This document shows, one piece after another, positions 6,949-37,890 of a stretch of DNA of 64,000 bases (within the stretch, counting starts at the first letter, position 1; every line of letters begins with the position of its first letter). The notes beneath the pieces are model-generated. The model had not been told where the DNA came from, made no database searches, and was given only the letters and a program-made list of their open reading frames with translations. The DNA is from Candidatus Moraniibacteriota bacterium (GTDB taxonomy: Bacteria; Patescibacteriota; Minisyncoccia; Moranbacterales; UBA1568). The position numbers and the translations under genes are program-made. The stretch is taken from positions 252,326-316,325 of the forward strand of contig CP064989.1 in the NCBI GenBank assembly GCA_016699875.1, given 5' to 3'.

Positions 6949-7899
6949 TTATTTCCGTTCGATCACTTCTCGAATACCGTAATTCATCGAATGATGACTT
7001 CTGTAGTACGCACGAATCATCATATCCGTCATGAGACCAAAAATAAAGAGCTGAATGCCCGCAAGAAGCAAGAAGACGCCGATCATAGGCCAAATGCGAT
7101 CCGAAAGCGATGCGCCAAAGAAGACTTTCTCCACAAACATCCAAAAGAGAATCCCCGATCCCAAGATAGAAAGCAAAAAGCCGCCGCCGCCGAAGAGGTG
7201 CACCGGGCGATGCGAGTACTTCCGCCAGAACCACACGGCGAGCATGTCGACAAATCCCTTCACGCTCCGCTTCCAGTTGTATTTGGTGACGCCATGCACG
7301 CGCGGATGGTGCGAAACCGGCACCTCCGCCACACGGAAACCCTTAATCTCAAGAAGCGCCGGAATAAACCGATGCATCTCACCAAAGAGATCGAAGTCCT
7401 CGAAACATTCCCTTCGAAACGCTTTGAGACTGCAGCCCGAATCGTGAATATTGTCGTGAATGAGAATGGTACGCAGCATGTTCGCGCCGCGCGAAAAGAT
7501 CTTCTTGCTCAAAGAATCTTGCCGCTTCACCCGCCATCCGGAGACCACATCATAGCCCTCGTCGAGCTTCGCAAGAAGAAGCGGGATATCAGCCGGATCA
7601 TTCTGCAAATCGCCGTCCATCGTAATCACAATATCGCCCGTCGCCCGCTTGAAACCTGCGTCAAACGCCGCGCTCTGTCCGAAGTTCTTGCGGAATACCA
7701 CGAGCGTAAGTGGCGAAAGCGCATGGCATTTCTCGAGCGTCGCGTCCCTCGACCCGTCATCGACAAAGATGATCTCATATAACTCACCGAGCTTCTCCAA
7801 GGATTCCTTGATGCGCCGATGGAGTTCCTCGACATTCCCCTCTTCGTTATAAAGCGGAACAACAACCGAATACCGAACCCGCCCGGAATCTGTTTCCAT
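6949..7899 (-). CDS. GT2 polyprenyl-phosphate glycosyltransferase (DPM1/ArnC-like)
   Basis: YSVVVPLYNEEGNV, FVDDGSRD and DGDLQNDP (DxD) motifs, with two C-terminal TM helices. Confidence 0.8.
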   Translation of the reverse strand: METDSGRVRYSVVVPLYNEEGNVEELHRRIKESLEKLGELYEIIFVDDGSRDATLEKCHALSPLTLVVFRKNFGQSAAFDAGFKRATGDIVITMDGDLQNDPADIPLLLAKLDEGYDVVSGWRVKRQDSLSKKIFSRGANMLRTILIHDNIHDSGCSLKAFRRECFEDFDLFGEMHRFIPALLEIKGFRVAEVPVSHHPRVHGVTKYNWKRSVKGFVDMLAVWFWRKYSHRPVHLFGGGGFLLSILGSGILFWMFVEKVFFGASLSDRIWPMIGVFLLLAGIQLFIFGLMTDMMIRAYYRSHHSMNYGIREVIERK

Positions 7900-8131
7900 A
7901 AAAAGAAAAACAAAGCCCCTACCGCCCTATTGTACCAAACCCCCGCCCAGAGGCAAGGAAAGCCCCTTTCTTCATTGTCGGTTCAGACAAGGTCAGACAA
8001 TATCCACCTTTCAAGAGCTCCTCTCAAGAGACAAAACTCTGATTCCTCCACTCCAATTAGAACAACAAAGAATCGAATCAAGAAAAATCCGCCAAAGAAG
8101 AATACTCTCTGGCGGCACTACACATCATGCT

Positions 8132-24139: not shown

Positions 24140-24170
24140 AATCCATCTCAGAGCCCATTCAAAAAGTCAG

Positions 24171-24247
24171 CTTTTCTGGGAAAAATTCTTTTTTGCGGCT
24201 TTCGTACGAAGTGTAAGACAAGCAAAAAAGAGTTTTTCCCAGAAAAG
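24171..24247. repeat. Long near-perfect inverted repeat (26-nt arms) enclosing a short palindrome; candidate terminator or structured element between priA and def
   Basis: cttttctgggaaaaattcttttttgc ... gcaaaaaagagtttttcccagaaaag, with ctttcgtacgaag in the loop. Confidence 0.5.
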
Positions 24248-24311
24248 CCCTCCCAATTCTCTTTGTCTTGAAACTTTTTTTTGACACACTCTCAAATATT
24301 TCCTACACATT

Positions 24312-31763: not shown

Positions 31764-33479
31764 CTACTTCTTTCGCACTTTCTCAGTCACCCAAAACTCG
31801 CCGAAGTAGTTCCCAAAAAGCAAGCGCGTCTGCGAATCAATCGCCGGAAATGCCGAGAGGAAAGCGACAAACGGAGACAAAACCCACTGAAACAGCATGA
31901 AAAAATGCTTCGACCAGTGATACTTCGCCGGCCGCGGAGGAAGCGAGAAGATAGAAAGCGGCACCGACACGACCATGCCGAGCATCGCAAGCGTCATAAG
32001 ACGCTGGGTAATAAGCGGCAAATTGTGTGCCAAAACACTCTCACGAAACGCAACGCCGCCCAAGACCAAGGGCAACCACCCGAGAAGCGCCAAAATAAAC
32101 GAGGTCGTCGCCCACGAATAGTGCCCCTCGAGCATTTCAAACGAAATGCGGAGCTTCTTAAAGAAGGCGATGCGCCGATCGGGCCAGAGAGCGCGCATCG
32201 TCACAGGGAAATTCTCGATACCATAGGCCCATCGACGATTCTGCTTGTACAAATTCACCACGGTTTTCCAATAGGTATCCGAAAGCACCGCATCGAGCGA
32301 AACCGGCAAATGAATCGGACACACTTCGTAGTCTCCATGAAAATACGCGAGGCATTTCCAGTAGATATTGGAGTCCTCGCTGATCATATTAACCAGCCAA
32401 AAGTCCACCTTTACCAGAGTATCAAACGGCTCGCTGTGCGATGAAAACGTCACCATCTGCCGCCTGGTACTCTGAAACAAGTGCCAAAACGACGACCCGG
32501 TCACCGCAAGCCGCACAAATGCATTCGTATCCCACAGCGTATTATGATAAACCGGCATCGGTTGGTATGCGCGCCGGAGCCGCTTCGGATTCGTCACATA
32601 TGCATAGGTGAGCGCGGCAAAGTACTCCGGATGCGCGATACTGTCGCAGTCAAAATTCGAGAAAACAACGCGCGTGTAATCAATGTGCCGTTCATCAAGA
32701 TATTTCTGCAATTCCTTCGCCGCAAATTTCGCATTCGATGCCTTGCATTTCATCTCTCCGTCCGCCACCACATGCGTCGTTACCAGAAAGTCTCGAAACA
32801 CCCCGTCAAATTTCTTCTTCAAAAATTCAACTTTCGCCAATCGATGCACCTCATCTTCACGTTCCTCGGTCGCCAAGAGCACGATCATCTGTTCTTTGGG
32901 AAAATTCGCCTCGGCAAGCGCGCGAATCGATGGCTCGATAATATCCGCACTCTCCCCTGCCGTCGGCAAGAGGACAACATGAATCACGCTCCTCCAGTCC
33001 ATGATGTCATGTTCGGACACTGCCAATCGCTTCGCCTCGGCAAGCGTCTCTTTCGTCCGGGCAATCTCTGCGTTCACTGCGCGCCGACGACGAAGCGAGA
33101 CAATCGAAAGACGCGAACGCGCATCTCGAAGACTTAAAAGACGCGACTCCAACTCACAGACAAATCCCGCCGGATCAAGACTCTTCTGACACCGCTCCCA
33201 CCAGTCTATTCTCTTGGATCGCACCAAACGGAAATGCGCCCGCGTTGAATAGAACGAAATAAACACGATACGATAGAGCCAGTAGAGATCGAAGAGAATA
33301 ATAAAAACCGCTGCCCACAGCGGCAAAAGAAATGAAACGACAAACATCCCGATAAGCGTCCCCCACGACAAAATCCCCGGCACCATCTCAAGCGCCCGTT
33401 GCACCCGCCGATTCTTCGGATCCGTTGTCTTCGGATCGGGAAACTCAAAGATATCCTCCGTTTGCCTGCTCGTATTCAT
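31764..33479 (-). CDS. Membrane-embedded GT2-family glycosyltransferase
   Basis: N-terminal TM pair, a cytoplasmic GT-A domain (DCDS, QxxRW-like RRWAYG) and C-terminal TM helices. Confidence 0.6.
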   Translation of the reverse strand: MNTSRQTEDIFEFPDPKTTDPKNRRVQRALEMVPGILSWGTLIGMFVVSFLLPLWAAVFIILFDLYWLYRIVFISFYSTRAHFRLVRSKRIDWWERCQKSLDPAGFVCELESRLLSLRDARSRLSIVSLRRRRAVNAEIARTKETLAEAKRLAVSEHDIMDWRSVIHVVLLPTAGESADIIEPSIRALAEANFPKEQMIVLLATEEREDEVHRLAKVEFLKKKFDGVFRDFLVTTHVVADGEMKCKASNAKFAAKELQKYLDERHIDYTRVVFSNFDCDSIAHPEYFAALTYAYVTNPKRLRRAYQPMPVYHNTLWDTNAFVRLAVTGSSFWHLFQSTRRQMVTFSSHSEPFDTLVKVDFWLVNMISEDSNIYWKCLAYFHGDYEVCPIHLPVSLDAVLSDTYWKTVVNLYKQNRRWAYGIENFPVTMRALWPDRRIAFFKKLRISFEMLEGHYSWATTSFILALLGWLPLVLGGVAFRESVLAHNLPLITQRLMTLAMLGMVVSVPLSIFSLPPRPAKYHWSKHFFMLFQWVLSPFVAFLSAFPAIDSQTRLLFGNYFGEFWVTEKVRKK

Positions 33480-33590
33480 GCGAGAATAATACCTTGTTTT
33501 AGGGAAAAAGACAAGAAAAAAGCCGCGTTCAAAATCAACTGAATCGCGGCATCAGACATTGAGAGCGTTGTTTTGTTACGGAAACAACAC

Positions 33591-33935
33591 TCAGGAAGTT
33601 ATGATGATTGTTCCAAAAACCCACTCAACAAAGAACTGAGCGGCTGTTTCCGGAACACCTTCTTCCCGCATCTTACTTATGATTAGATCTCGAAGTATGC
33701 CACATATCACATCAGAACACTGGCATCTCAATACACAGTTACTCCAAGACATACATAATCGAATCAGAGGGAGTATTTCAGAATGAAAGGTAACGAATTG
33801 AATCGGCGTTATCACTAAGACATTCCGAACGCCAGTATTCGCAACTTTGCTAATGTCCTGCTGGAGAATATACCCCTCCCATTTCTGATCATTTAACGCG
33901 AAAGATGGGATGTTTACAACGTATTCTTCAGACAT
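33591..33935 (-). CDS. Small Cys-rich hypothetical protein
   Basis: ORF in an AT-rich island, directly downstream of the conserved promoter-like motif. Confidence 0.4.
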   Translation of the reverse strand: MSEEYVVNIPSFALNDQKWEGYILQQDISKVANTGVRNVLVITPIQFVTFHSEILPLIRLCMSWSNCVLRCQCSDVICGILRDLIISKMREEGVPETAAQFFVEWVFGTIIITS

Positions 33936-33987
33936 CTCATTTCTCCTTACAAGTTGTTCGAGAACTACACCTTCTCCCTACCGTAAA

Positions 33988-34042
33988 TTCCGGCAGACAT
34001 CACATTTATGTATACTTTTTTCAAAAGTTTTGTCAATACACG
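33988..34042 (-). promoter_or_regulatory. Promoter-like element, copy A (TTGACA-17/18-ATACAT plus a conserved TGCCGGAA box downstream)
   Basis: Minus strand reads ttgacaaaacttttgaaaaaagtatacataaatgtgatgtctgccggaa. It is nearly identical to the copy at 36101-36155. Confidence 0.55.
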
Positions 34043-34267
34043 CCTGAAAGTTCCAAAACAAACTAGCCCTAAATGTGAAAACATATCACTTGCAGTGAGA
34101 AAAATTCATTCGTTCTCAAAATATCCGGCCAGGGCTCAATAAGAAATACTTGAATACAAATTTCCTCTCTGCAAGAAATTCTGAGAACATACGTACCAAC
34201 TAAAGTACGACAATCGCCTTCTTCAACCGGTGAGTGGTATGTCGGATAATTTTTTAGAATAGTCGGT

Positions 34268-34999
34268 ATGAAAAAGAAAAAGAATTTGATTGGATATTCA
34301 GTTGCCGTGGCAGTTGCCGCAATATCATTTGCAACACTCTCTTCGGGAAGCGCGCTCGCCGAATTCGGTTCGAGAAACATGGGACAATATGGACAAAATC
34401 GGCAAATGCGCGACGGCGATCAACAGGGCGGACCATTCAGATCAAACGAATCCGTTTCCGCCTGCGAGGATAAATCCGAAGGAGACAGCTGTTCGTTCTC
34501 CATGACGCCGCCGAATGGCAGTGATGCCGTCACTGTAGAAGGCACCTGTTCCAAAGCTCCCACAAGACAAGGTCAAGACGACGACACCGAAAGCGATACG
34601 CTTTCGTGCATGCCGGCACGAAATGAACTCATGAAAAACGCTCCCGATGGTGCGAAAGTCACCTCGCAAAACCGACTCGAGAGAGCGGAAGCTATGAGGG
34701 AACGCGCAGCATCAAGAATCACCGCAACACAAACTCGACTCAGCAACATCGTAAGCTTCTTGCAATCAAAAGATGTCGATACCAGCGCAATTGAAAGCGA
34801 AATCGACACACTCAAAGAAAAAACTGATACTGTGCTCGACAAATACGATGCACTGATTACGCTCCTCAGAGAAGACAGCCCCTCGAGCGACGACGTCAAG
34901 ACTGCTTTCGAGGCCGTCCGTTCCGCCGAGAAAGCAGTGCGGGACTACTTCACTGGCACCCTACGAACCGCAATCCGATCCGCACTCGATTCGTTGTAA
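34268..34999 (+). CDS. Secreted hypothetical protein
   Basis: Signal peptide (MKKKKNLIGYSVAVAVAAISFATLSSGSALA), a Cys pair and a helical C-terminus. Confidence 0.5.
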   Translation: MKKKKNLIGYSVAVAVAAISFATLSSGSALAEFGSRNMGQYGQNRQMRDGDQQGGPFRSNESVSACEDKSEGDSCSFSMTPPNGSDAVTVEGTCSKAPTRQGQDDDTESDTLSCMPARNELMKNAPDGAKVTSQNRLERAEAMRERAASRITATQTRLSNIVSFLQSKDVDTSAIESEIDTLKEKTDTVLDKYDALITLLREDSPSSDDVKTAFEAVRSAEKAVRDYFTGTLRTAIRSALDSL

Positions 35000-35040
35000 A
35001 CCGATTCAAAGCGAAACACTCACCAACAATACATCTCTCT

Positions 35041-35352
35041 ATGGATCCCAAAAGAAAAATTATCACGCTCATAGCGTCCGCAGTCGCCATCATAGTCGTC
35101 GGAGGGCTCATCCTCTTCTCGGTCTCCGGCAATAAGAAGCAAGTATCGAACAACAGCTCACCCTCAACAGAGACAGCGACAGACGCGCTTTCCGGAAAGA
35201 CAGGTGCCGCATCGTCCGCAAACAATGCTGCACCACCGACAAAGAAAGCGGAAGAAATTCCCGCCGTCACCACCAAAGACGATGCCGAAAAGTCACTCGA
35301 CCAAATCGACTCCGACATGGCATCCTCCGAAACAGATACAAGCGGTTTTTAG
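35041..35352 (+). CDS. Small membrane-anchored hypothetical protein
   Basis: N-terminal TM helix followed by a Ser/Thr/Ala-rich acidic tail. Confidence 0.45.
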   Translation: MDPKRKIITLIASAVAIIVVGGLILFSVSGNKKQVSNNSSPSTETATDALSGKTGAASSANNAAPPTKKAEEIPAVTTKDDAEKSLDQIDSDMASSETDTSGF

Positions 35353-35371
35353 GAAAAACAAATGTAAAAAA

Positions 35372-35400
35372 CCCGCATCTCTTCATGAGTGCGGGTTTTG
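35372..35400. terminator. Probable bidirectional intrinsic terminator
   Basis: Imperfect hairpin cccgcatctc...gagtgcggg followed by TTTT. It lies between convergent genes. Confidence 0.4.
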
Positions 35401-35419
35401 CGGTTATTACAATCCCTCC

Positions 35420-36040
35420 TTATTCTGCTCTAAAGCCAGGCTGCCATTTTTTAACTTCTTCGCCCTTACCGGCAGCAGGAGGCGTATTCAGGTGATTAGC
35501 ACAGAGCACTTCAAAAAAATCTCCTTCCGACCCACCGCGGATCCAATAATCTTCGTCGATAGCATCAACACCTAAACGAGCGCAAGGAATGAAGTGCACA
35601 TTGAAACTGCGAATATTTTCGCCACAAGGTTTTCTCAATTCGATCACAACTTCATCACGACCCGAGGAATTCTCAGTGATAATTAAGCGAGCTGAACTGA
35701 ATTCGGTAGGACGAACAACGACAGTCCTTTTACCCTCAGGAGAGATGTCATCTTCATCCATGAACACATTCGTCGCCATTTCAACCATGGCTTGGAACCT
35801 CCGAAGCCAATCTTGAGCTTTCCTTGCTTGGTCATTCGCTCTTTCCGCCCATAAGTGGCGTTGTTCAATAACAGTCTTCCATTCCTCCTTTATTTCGTCT
35901 AACTCGGAACTTAACAGTTTAGTCCGTTCCCGAAGGGGCTTGACATTGAAAAGCATGACTAGAGAACCACCAATAAAAAATCCCGATACGACGCCAAACA
36001 AAGTGCCAATTACAAAATACGTAGAATCAACAATGCTCAT
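35420..36040 (-). CDS. Membrane-anchored coiled-coil hypothetical protein
   Basis: N-terminal TM helix, a coiled coil and a C-terminal globular part. Confidence 0.45.
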   Translation of the reverse strand: MSIVDSTYFVIGTLFGVVSGFFIGGSLVMLFNVKPLRERTKLLSSELDEIKEEWKTVIEQRHLWAERANDQARKAQDWLRRFQAMVEMATNVFMDEDDISPEGKRTVVVRPTEFSSARLIITENSSGRDEVVIELRKPCGENIRSFNVHFIPCARLGVDAIDEDYWIRGGSEGDFFEVLCANHLNTPPAAGKGEEVKKWQPGFRAE

Positions 36041-36100
36041 CTCAATTCCCCTCTTTAGGTTTCTTTGGATTTAAGGTACTGCTCCGCTATACTGGAACCA

Positions 36101-36155
36101 TTCCGGCAAGCGTCATATCTATATACACCTTTTTCATAGTTTTGTCAATATGATT
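36101..36155 (-). promoter_or_regulatory. Promoter-like element, copy B (TTGACA-17-TATATA plus a TGCCGGAA box)
   Basis: Minus strand reads ttgacaaaactatgaaaaaggtgtatatagatatgacgcttgccggaa. The -35 overlaps the divergent GH1 start codon. Confidence 0.55.
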
Positions 36156-37406
36156 CGGCAATTTCCCGAGGGATTCCTCTGGGGCGCAGCGACCGCATCG
36201 CATCAGGTAGAAGGTGGCAATACGAATGATTGGTCAGAGTGGGAAGCACAAAATGCCAGCCGCCTCGCCAAGAAATCCACTTCTGAATTCGGACATCTCC
36301 CCGGCTGGACCGAGAAGTTCGGCACGGAAGCCGCGCGCCCCGAGAACTATATTTCCGGAGTCGCTGTCGATCACTATCATCGCTATGAAGAAGACTTCGA
36401 TATTGCCAAAGAACTCGGCCACACCGCCTCCCGGTTCTCCATCGAGTGGTCGCGCGTCGAGCCACAGGAGGGGGTGTGGAATGAGGAAGAAATAGTCCAT
36501 TATCAAACAGTTGTCCGCGCGCTTCGAGCAAGGAACATCGAGCCATTCGTCACTCTCTGGCACTGGACACTGCCCCTCTGGCTCAGAGAGCAGGGCGGGA
36601 TGCTCGCGCCAAAGTTTCCGGAATACTTCGCCCGCTATGCCAAAAAGGTTGCAATCGCACTTGGAAACGATGTAACTTTTTGGATTACCCTCAACGAACC
36701 GGACGTCGTCACCGGACACGCCTATATAAAAGCTCAGTGGCCACCGCAAGAAAGAGGGCTTCTAAAGTATATCCGCGCCAACTTCGCACTCATCAAAGCG
36801 CATCGAAGCACGTACTCCGCCATCAAACAACACAATCCAAACGCGCACATCGGCATCGCCAAGCACCAGCTGTCATTCGAACTCAAGAGAAACACGTTCG
36901 TTAACCGAACACTCAAGCTATTCGCTCACTATTTTTGGAACAAGTGGTTTCTCAATCGCGTCAAAGACACGCAAGATTTCGTCGGATTAAATCACTACGG
37001 GCGATGCGTGATCGATAATGGGCTCTACAAAAACCCCAATGAGCGCCGAACCGATATCGGCTGGGAATTTTATCCCGAGTCTATTTACCAAGCACTCACG
37101 GAGTTGAAACCATACGGCAAGCCCATTTATATCACCGAAAACGGCCTCGCCGACCGAAGCGACACACTCCGGCAAGAGTTTCTGACGCGCGCACTCGCAT
37201 CCGTCCACCGCGCAATAGAAGACGGCGCCGAAATCAAAGGTTATCTCCACTGGTCGCTTCTTGACAACTTCGAATGGGACAAGGGCTTCTGGCCATGCTT
37301 CGGACTCATCGCTGTCGACCGCACAACACAAAACCGAACCGTTCGCGAAAGCGCGAGATACTACGCCAAGATCTGCCACGCAAACGAGCTCGAAACTACT
37401 GAGTAA
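36150..37406 (+). CDS. Glycoside hydrolase family 1 beta-glucosidase
   Basis: TLNEP (acid/base) and YITENG (nucleophile), plus the FLWGAATASHQVEG N-terminus. Confidence 0.85.
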   Translation: MIRQFPEGFLWGAATASHQVEGGNTNDWSEWEAQNASRLAKKSTSEFGHLPGWTEKFGTEAARPENYISGVAVDHYHRYEEDFDIAKELGHTASRFSIEWSRVEPQEGVWNEEEIVHYQTVVRALRARNIEPFVTLWHWTLPLWLREQGGMLAPKFPEYFARYAKKVAIALGNDVTFWITLNEPDVVTGHAYIKAQWPPQERGLLKYIRANFALIKAHRSTYSAIKQHNPNAHIGIAKHQLSFELKRNTFVNRTLKLFAHYFWNKWFLNRVKDTQDFVGLNHYGRCVIDNGLYKNPNERRTDIGWEFYPESIYQALTELKPYGKPIYITENGLADRSDTLRQEFLTRALASVHRAIEDGAEIKGYLHWSLLDNFEWDKGFWPCFGLIAVDRTTQNRTVRESARYYAKICHANELETTE

Positions 37407-37569: not shown

Positions 37570-37815
37570 ATGTACTACACATATATACTCAAAAGCGCCA
37601 AGAAACCCTATCGATATATTGGTTCCACTGAAAATCTAAGGAAGCGACTTCTTGAACACAATCAAGGAAAAACCAAATCCATTCAACACCTCATTCCTTT
37701 TGCACTCGAATATTATGAAGCCTACACAACAAAGAAACTCGCCAGAAAAAGAGAGCTAGAACTCAAGAAGAACAGCTTTAAGAAACGAGAACTTTTTGAG
37801 AGAATCAGCGAATAA
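37570..37815 (+). CDS. Small GIY-YIG nuclease-domain protein (81 aa)
   Basis: YYTYILKS...YIGSTENLRKRLLEHN is a GIY-YIG motif. A strong SD (GGAGG) sits 6 nt upstream. The gene lies between the duplicated tRNA-Glu segments. Confidence 0.7.
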   Translation: MYYTYILKSAKKPYRYIGSTENLRKRLLEHNQGKTKSIQHLIPFALEYYEAYTTKKLARKRELELKKNSFKKRELFERISE

Positions 37816-37818
37816 TCT

Positions 37819-37890
37819 GGTCCCATCGTCTATCGGTTAGGACATCAGGTTTTCATCCTGAAAAGAGGGGTTCGACTCCCCTTGGGACTA
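37819..37890 (+). tRNA. tRNA-Glu (anticodon UUC)
   Basis: Cloverleaf folded by hand: 7-bp acceptor stem (G1-U72), D-stem gtct/ggac, anticodon stem tcagg/cctga, loop ttTTCat, T-arm agggg-ttcgact-cccct. No encoded CCA. Confidence 0.7.

Follow-up and report, generated by a model that had tools for sequence, protein, structure and literature searches.

Positions 33480-36149 of the analysed 64-kb stretch of contig CP064989.1 (the window, in the following) most likely represent a strain-variable accessory islet, in which one promoter-plus-leader was duplicated and would now drive two unrelated orphan genes, with transcription deduced from sequence features. The islet is found in a clade of Candidatus Moranbacteria (Patescibacteria, candidate phyla radiation, CPR), within the normally short intergenic region of two conserved divergent genes. 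One of them encodes a GT2-like membrane glycosyltransferase-like protein and the other a GH1 beta-glucosidase. The two promoter copies were named E1 and E2. E1 precedes the open reading frame (ORF) ORF114, while E2 precedes ORF206 and abuts the start of GH1. The divergent flanks, the independent distribution of the enclosed genes among related strains, the conserved hexamers of both elements and an intermediate form of the repeat in one relative carry this reading.

The islet between GT2 and GH1

The GT2-like and GH1 genes were found directly adjacent and divergent in at least 17 other Moranbacteria genomes, and 33480-36149 is therefore an insertion. The gap between the two genes usually amounts to 82-205 nt (L002, L006, L021, L064, L023, L020, L008, L004/5, L013, L019, L053, L024). 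None of the four genes of the islet (ORF114, ORF243, ORF103 and ORF206) was detectable in any of 80 related loci. Searching 5.8 billion proteins, only few clusters of homologues of the orphan proteins were obtained, all from a narrow Moranbacteria clade; for ORF206, 5 homologues were found among 1.84 billion representative proteins. All homologues that could be placed lie at the same locus in close relatives, in activated-sludge and similar assemblies. The original prediction, made from the sequence of the window, had called the segment accessory and lineage-specific, and this description fits the insertion and the narrow distribution. The window has retained the promoter of the GT2-like gene; homologous GT2 promoters were found in L002, L069, L021 and others. 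The GH1 protein (PF00232, E = 4.6e-87) has its best species-representative match, 77% identical, in Candidatus Moranbacteria/Moraniibacteriota. ORF206 matches the protein IPK84_01405 of a Moraniibacteriota metagenome-assembled genome without any difference, and the organism was seen in SRR11674035 and SRR12486993.

The islet consists of three transcription units (M1, M2 and M3; Table 1), each with its own terminator, which are present or absent independently among strains. All three lie between GT2 and GH1 in the window, in L001 and in L082. M2 and M3 were observed in L115-L120, with an M3 allele of 160 amino acids (30% identical to ORF206), and in L124, with an M3 allele of 207 amino acids; L122 carries an allele as in L124 on a contig which stops shortly past the M3 start codon. 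L121 contains M2 only and has kept E2, with no minus-strand gene behind it. Of the three units, L103 and L112 contain M1 alone; here E2 and E1 form a tandem and are separated by about 261 nt. In L129 another gene and its terminator are followed by an E1-like element and an ORF114 homologue. The single co-regulated module that had been proposed for the whole segment is contradicted by this independent presence and absence.

Table 1. Positions of genes, modules and predicted regulatory features in and around the islet (window coordinates).
Feature	Position	Strand	Description
GT2-like gene	31764..33479	-	membrane glycosyltransferase-like; conserved flank; no Pfam match
GT2 promoter	33486..33514	-	retained ancestral promoter; TTGTCT, 17 nt, TATTAT; 6 nt upstream of GT2 ATG
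ORF114 terminator	33516..33550	-	intrinsic; GCCGCG...CGCGGC + T6, read from sequence; same arrangement in L129
M1	33517-34170	-	E1, ORF114, terminator
ORF114	33591..33935	-	cytoplasmic, Cys-rich orphan; start codon at 33935
E1 leader hairpin	33977..33997	-	predicted; UCUGCCG-GAAUUUA-CGGUAGG; same stem core as E2 after 7-nt deletion
E1	33987..34036	-	paralogue of E2, precedes ORF114; -35 TTGACA 34036..34031; -10 TATACA 34014..34009; predicted start near 34002; TGCCGGAAT at 33995..33987
M2		+	ORF243-ORF103
ORF243	34268..34999	+	secreted; signal peptide, Cys-containing region, helical C-terminal half
ORF103	35041..35352	+	single-pass membrane protein, low-complexity tail; operon with ORF243
Bidirectional terminator hairpin	35365..35399		between convergent ORF103 and ORF206; ACCCGCA...TGCGGGT; conserved in L082
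M3		-	E2, ORF206-family gene, terminator
ORF206	35420..36040	-	N-terminal transmembrane helix, coiled coil, small beta domain; start codon at 36040
GH1 promoter	36065..36093	+	predicted; TTGGAT 36065-36070, 17-nt spacer, TATACT 36088-36093; start near 36100; inside ORF206 leader
E2 leader hairpin	36085..36112	-	predicted; CGCUUGCCGGAA-UGG-UUCCAGUAUAGCG; TGCCGGAA box is the 5' arm
E2	36100..36148	-	sigma-70-type promoter; -35 TTGACA 36148..36143; 17-nt spacer; -10 TATATA 36125..36120; predicted start near 36113; TGCCGGAAT at 36108..36100; -35 box touches GH1 ATG (36150)
GH1 beta-glucosidase	36150..37406	+	conserved flank; PF00232

The islet has a GC content of 0.454, and no other 2670-nt window sampled in the 64 kb reached so low a value (mean 0.495, standard deviation 0.017). 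The AT-rich island of the original prediction thus exists on average, but it is uneven: the ORF114 module reaches 0.398 and the ORF206 module 0.438, whereas the ORF243-ORF103 module is at the genome average of 0.496. Comparing the window and L103 (L103 607-1094 versus 1-525), 94% identity was observed over E1 and ORF114 and about 80% over GH1. An exchange of the ORF114 module between lineages may thus postdate the divergence of the flanking core gene. Flexible genomic islets offer the closest comparison: fixed core flanks, here GT2 and GH1, enclose variable small orphan secreted and membrane proteins of lower GC content which differ among close strains. The present islet differs in its size of 0-2.7 kb, its lack of mobility genes and the absence of a transfer RNA (tRNA) or repeat boundary. 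Closely related activated-sludge strains swap small secreted and membrane orphan genes at this tiny hot spot. The locus is otherwise ordinary, a new instance of two known phenomena, promoter reuse and flexible islets.

Elements E1 and E2

Two near-identical minus-strand elements with 17-nt spacers had been predicted upstream of the starts at 33935 and 36040. Both were found at these positions. Using BLASTN with the 150-nt upstream regions, 42 of 52 positions were identical (81%, one gap, E = 2e-10), so the repeat is real and its copies are similar rather than near-identical. The 17-nt spacer holds for E2, whereas that of E1 has 16 nt with TATACA or 17 nt with ATACAT as -10 box. Chance similarity of two consensus promoters was considered and rejected, as the identity runs through spacer and leader. 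Allowing 3 mismatches at most in a 19-nt core pattern, only two sites were found in the 64 kb, E1 and E2, versus 0.07 expected by chance. An nhmmer profile built from five copies gave the same two matches in the window and no copies in the other related Patescibacteria loci fetched. A pattern scan of metagenomes returned 29 loci, of which 28 were unrelated (mostly two sequences recurring in many assemblies) and only L103 was homologous.

An E2 orthologue abuts the GH1 start in every locus of the clade (L082, L103, L112, L115-L120, L121 and L124), and E1 orthologues were found in L001, L103, L112 and L113. In the alignment of eight E2 orthologues and three E1 copies, TTGACAAAA was invariant in 11/11 copies, as was the -35 box TTGACA (TTGATA in L129), and the -10 box read TATAYA or TATACT. 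The spacers drift and show four sequences (AAACTATGAAAAAGGTG, AAACAAAAGAAAAAGTG, AAATTCTAGAAATAGAG and AAGCAAAGGAAAGAGTG). As the sigma-70-type hexamers and their spacing (TTGACA-17-TATATA in E2, TTGACA-16-TATACA in E1) are kept while the spacers vary, both elements look like real sigma-70-type promoters, as had originally been proposed. Promoters of this type are expected to have a -35 box near TTGACA and a -10 box of the form TAnnnT at a distance of 16-18 nt, and to start transcription 6-8 nt past the -10 box. Any gene behind E2 is a member of the ORF206 family, and intact copies of the element have a minus-strand ribosome-binding site and an ATG 60-75 nt downstream. Between the window and L103, identity amounts to 91% for E2 together with 40 nt at the beginning of the leader, and to 78% for the neighbouring coding DNA of GH1 (Fisher p = 0.002).

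Judged by these alignments, E1 is a paralogous duplicate by descent of the E2 promoter and the first part of its leader. An intermediate form was observed in L129, where an element upstream of a 57%-identical ORF114 homologue reads TTGATA-17-TATACA, followed by the E2-type GACGCTCGCCGGAATGGTTCCGGTAGAGCGG and then by the E1-type leader GTGTAGTTCTTGAACAATTTGTAA...GGAGAAA. The E2-type portion contains the 7 nt which were deleted from E1 of the window. Because L129 holds this intermediate form, the similarity of E1 and E2 is attributed to the duplication of one promoter-plus-leader. Duplication accounts for the similarity, and therefore no selection for a shared regulator site is needed. The idea of a single regulator behind both elements loses its support here, and co-regulation is possible as a by-product of the duplication.

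Bacterial genomes are known to contain putative mobile promoters, 68% of whose families are two-membered (Matus-Garcia, Nijveen and van Passel, 2012; PMC3488235). In that study they were defined by a minimum length of 50 nt, a minimum identity of 80%, a position within about 150 nt upstream of start codons and non-homologous downstream genes. With 42/52 identical positions and the non-homologous genes ORF114 and ORF206 downstream, E1 and E2 fall barely within this definition. The definition also asks for non-homologous upstream genes; the upstream neighbours here, the secreted orphan ORF243 and GH1, belong to plainly different families, judged by family assignment. Both the 81% identity and the two-member family resemble the published cases (PMC3488235). 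The differences are the position of the copies, with 2.1 kb between them in one islet and a tandem at a distance of about 261 nt in L103 and L112, the inclusion of a leader hairpin in the copied unit and the overlap of one copy with the promoter of a divergent gene. As the two copies lie close together, a local duplication, and not a genome-wide propagation, is indicated.

The predicted leader hairpin and the predicted GH1 promoter

Downstream of both -10 boxes the original prediction had noted TGCCGGAA as a conserved box and putative operator. Such an operator, bound by one regulator, would make ORF114 and ORF206 a co-regulated accessory regulon. We regard this explanation as unlikely, even if it keeps the most weight among the alternatives to a plain duplication. 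The box is identical in both copies of the window, exact TGCCGGAAT occurs in the window only there, and a location just 3' of the predicted starts is typical for repressors. Furthermore, the E2 box lies within the imperfect palindrome CGCTTGCCGGAA-TGG-TTCCAGTATAGCG, the arms of which are conserved and the centre of which is variable. However, the box varies among orthologues and paralogues, reading TGTCGGAA in L115, TACCGGAA in L124, CACCGGAG in L121, TGCCGAAA in E1 of L103 and L112, and CGCCGGAA in L129. It differs at 1-3 positions in five copies and is conserved no better than its surroundings. Moreover, the 7-nt deletion removed the second half-site from E1, and the two elements therefore have no dimeric site of fixed spacing in common. 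This missing half-site makes it unlikely that a protein binds one palindromic site in both E1 and E2, and the shared palindromic operator was rejected. Variants of the box with one mismatch are common in the window (36 versus about 19 expected by chance), mostly inside genes. The islet contains no regulator gene, and the independent occurrence of M1, M2 and M3 also speaks against a regulon.

A leader hairpin with the TGCCGGAA box in its 5' arm, possibly an mRNA-stabilising 5' stem-loop, is weakly favoured over the protein site. In an alignment of 10 sequences 89% of the cells were paired, a percentage reached by 4/500 shuffles, and five pairs varying on one side all remain standard or G-U pairs on the minus-strand RNA. 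Rfam gave no match at the gathering threshold and nothing meaningful at E <= 1 in 33400-36300. Some bacterial mRNAs are stabilised by stem-loops at their 5' terminus; examples are the leaders of ompA and of ermC/aprE. The transcripts of E1 and E2 resemble these in having a predicted stem-loop a few nt from the predicted 5' end, kept by wobble-compatible changes; they differ in that the z-scores are not significant and that there is almost no covariation. In E2, the TGCCGGAA box coincides with the predicted transcription start of GH1.

The most conserved stretch 3' of E2 is TTCCAGTATAGCG, which is invariant and reads CGCTATACTGGAA on the plus strand. A plus-strand TTGnnn-17-TATACT was found in all eight E2 loci, with TTGGAT, TTGAGT, TTGGAC or TTGAAT as -35 box. 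These hexamers are predicted to be the GH1 promoter, with the E2 sequence as GH1 leader; E2 matches exactly the leader of about 50 nt (36100-36149) which this promoter would produce. As another candidate, a leaderless GH1 promoter with TAGTTT (36137-36142) was rejected, since this hexamer is not conserved and reads TTGTTT in L115. In the predicted layout the E2 and GH1 promoters would stand face-to-face; 26 bp would separate their -10 boxes, and their 5' ends would share about 14 nt, an estimate derived from conserved hexamers only (predicted starts at about 36100 on the plus and about 36113 on the minus strand). If this layout is right, the two promoters probably compete. The arrangement resembles an excludon (PMC12288877) in that ORF206 and GH1 are divergent and each predicted promoter lies within the 5' leader of the other gene, so that their expression could be mutually exclusive. 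It differs from an excludon in the predicted RNA overlap of about 14 nt versus long antisense untranslated regions, and any effect would mainly be promoter occlusion. This predicted promoter pair and the hypervariable gene driven by E2 form a modestly interesting side story.

Two observations on neighbouring promoters were made in the relatives. In L121 (9030-9150, minus strand) a hairpin followed by T7 (CTCAGAAA...TTTCTGAG TTTTTTT) lies about 85 nt past E2, from which only a short transcript would arise, in antisense orientation to the predicted GH1 promoter. In the islet-free relatives L002, L021, L023, L020 and L024, the GT2 and GH1 genes have a -10-like hexamer 6-7 nt before the ATG and no ribosome-binding site. 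ORF243 of the window shows a comparable TAGAAT 7 nt upstream of its ATG (34255-34270). Leaderless mRNAs may thus be common in this lineage.

The overlap with the GH1 leader provides another explanation, namely that E2 is conserved mainly as 5' untranslated or regulatory region of GH1, with an incidental minus-strand promoter and E1 as a neutral leftover of the duplication. In this clade GH1 is always accompanied by E2, even in L121, and E2 coincides with the predicted GH1 leader. Nevertheless, we consider this explanation quite improbable. The E1 and L129 copies have no adjoining GH1 and still keep TTGACA or TTGATA, a spacer of 16-17 nt and TATACA, and E1 hardly differs between strains in which the ORF114 proteins share only 72% identity. 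The ribosome-binding site and ATG behind each intact copy point in the same direction. E1 copies have kept the minus-strand -35 box, -10 box, leader hairpin and ribosome-binding site, whereas TACCGT or TCTACC, a decayed form, stands in the place of the plus-strand TATACT. Such a pattern would be expected with a functional minus-strand promoter and a plus-strand promoter that is required only beside GH1. The duplicated promoter-plus-leader thus provides a natural experiment: by keeping the parts for one direction it pinpoints the likely functional hexamers and the leader hairpin without wet-lab data. To our knowledge, very little is known about the organisation of transcription in Patescibacteria, no lineage of which is easy to grow.

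E1 and E2 as ends of a mobile element (attachment sites or target duplication), or as a dispersed repeat with outward promoter similar to miniature inverted-repeat transposable elements (MITE), are extremely unlikely and were rejected: the direct repeats, 2113 bp apart, do bracket three genes, and the bracketed DNA is missing from L103 and L112, but these two strains hold both copies in tandem where excision would leave one site. Mobility-gene domains (integrase or transposase) were not found in the islet, nor were terminal inverted repeats or inverted repeats at the module edges. Further copies were absent from the window and from the other related Patescibacteria loci fetched, the single true homologue of the metagenome scan lies at the same locus, and viral contigs gave no match in the pattern scan or in the protein scans with ORF206 and ORF114.

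Several observations weigh against the duplication of a functional promoter-plus-leader. We are aware that the scan for copies covered 64 kb of a genome of about 1.09 Mb (6%), and further copies may exist elsewhere. The excess conservation of E2 over GH1 coding DNA was significant for L103 only. E2 overlaps the 5' region of GH1, and part of its conservation could serve that gene. It was also kept without an intact gene behind it in L121, L103 and L112, with only a stub (Shine-Dalgarno sequence, ATG and TGA) in the latter two. All start sites are sequence predictions. Regarding the hairpin, a change on both sides was observed in one pair only, so covariation is minimal, and the fold energies were not better than those of shuffled sequences (z = -0.9 and -1.5).

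A more far-reaching scenario would turn the promoter pair into a switch. In an episymbiotic CPR lineage, the E2 and GH1 promoters would allow expression of either the beta-glucosidase or the hypervariable membrane-anchored protein, but not of both, and the duplicated leader hairpin, with its TGCCGGAA arm, would be bound by a lineage-specific RNA- or DNA-binding regulator which also controls ORF114. We attach a low probability to this scenario. If true, it would amount to a small circuit of regulation that has not been described before, in an organism of which very few regulators are known.

Orphan proteins and further observations

When the four proteins were scanned against Pfam, NCBIfam, PADLOC and PHROG, nothing was obtained beyond weak noise from coiled coils or transmembrane segments, in line with the proposal that they have no recognisable homology. 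ORF114 and ORF206 had also been described as unrelated to each other, and a BLASTP comparison of the two gave no alignment (E = 12). ORF114 has homologues with 89%, 72% and 57% identity, in which the C-terminal half is conserved. Those of ORF243 are 57-91% identical and always located between GT2 and GH1. The ORF206 family is very small and fast-evolving, with alleles downstream of E2 in other strains being 27-69% identical. Modelling ORF114 with AlphaFold2 from its single sequence, a predicted local distance difference test score (pLDDT) of 54.5 was obtained, which means low confidence. The ORF206 model, based on a 6-sequence alignment, was also of low confidence (pLDDT 63.5, predicted template modelling score 0.33). 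In this low-confidence model a long N-terminal helix, comprising the transmembrane segment and the coiled coil (residues 3-88), is followed by the small beta domain; a Foldseek comparison of the model with the PDB gave no match at E < 0.1.

Comparing the window with L082, about 98% identity was observed for GH1, for E2 and for ORF206 in its C-terminal two-thirds, but identity drops to about 50% in a stretch of about 250 nt (window 36065..35810 versus L082 275-540). This stretch spans the ORF206 ribosome-binding site and the N-terminal transmembrane and coiled-coil region. In the whole clade, the gene driven by E2 is 27-69% identical, versus 57-91% for the neighbouring ORF243. The divergence of ORF206 suggests allele replacement or diversifying selection. 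One of the swapped genes thus evolves far faster than its neighbours and is a candidate for a surface or host-interaction protein. More speculatively, roles at the cell surface would fit proteins that are secreted or membrane-bound and diverge rapidly.

Another variable spot was noticed beside the islet. Between GH1 and tsaD, the window contains a small GIY-YIG-type ORF (MYYTYILKS...YIGSTENL; 37570-37815) and a tRNA (37819-37890). The ORF had no tblastn match in L002, where the gap between GH1 and tsaD amounts to about 240 nt.

At 24145-24280 of the window a hairpin of about 80 nt was found, with a 27-bp stem (24170-24248; GCTTTTCTGGGAAAAATTCTTTTTTGC...GCAAAAAAGAGTTTTTCCCAGAAAAGC) and a DNA fold z-score of -5.6. 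It recurs at different loci, namely at 7859-7992 and 14133-14210 of L115 and at 6-108 of L119. In L115 a hairpin lies between a ferric-reductase-like gene and GT2, where the window has none. The hairpin looks like a small dispersed palindromic element, resembling repetitive extragenic palindromic (REP) or MITE elements, or like a mobile terminator. The GC skew was negative in every 1-kb bin of the window (about -0.04 to -0.34). Many long spurious ORFs lie on the strand opposite to real genes, GT2 and GH1 among them, and public gene calls on related contigs include such antisense ORFs (L112 3802-4986, L119 2884-3186).

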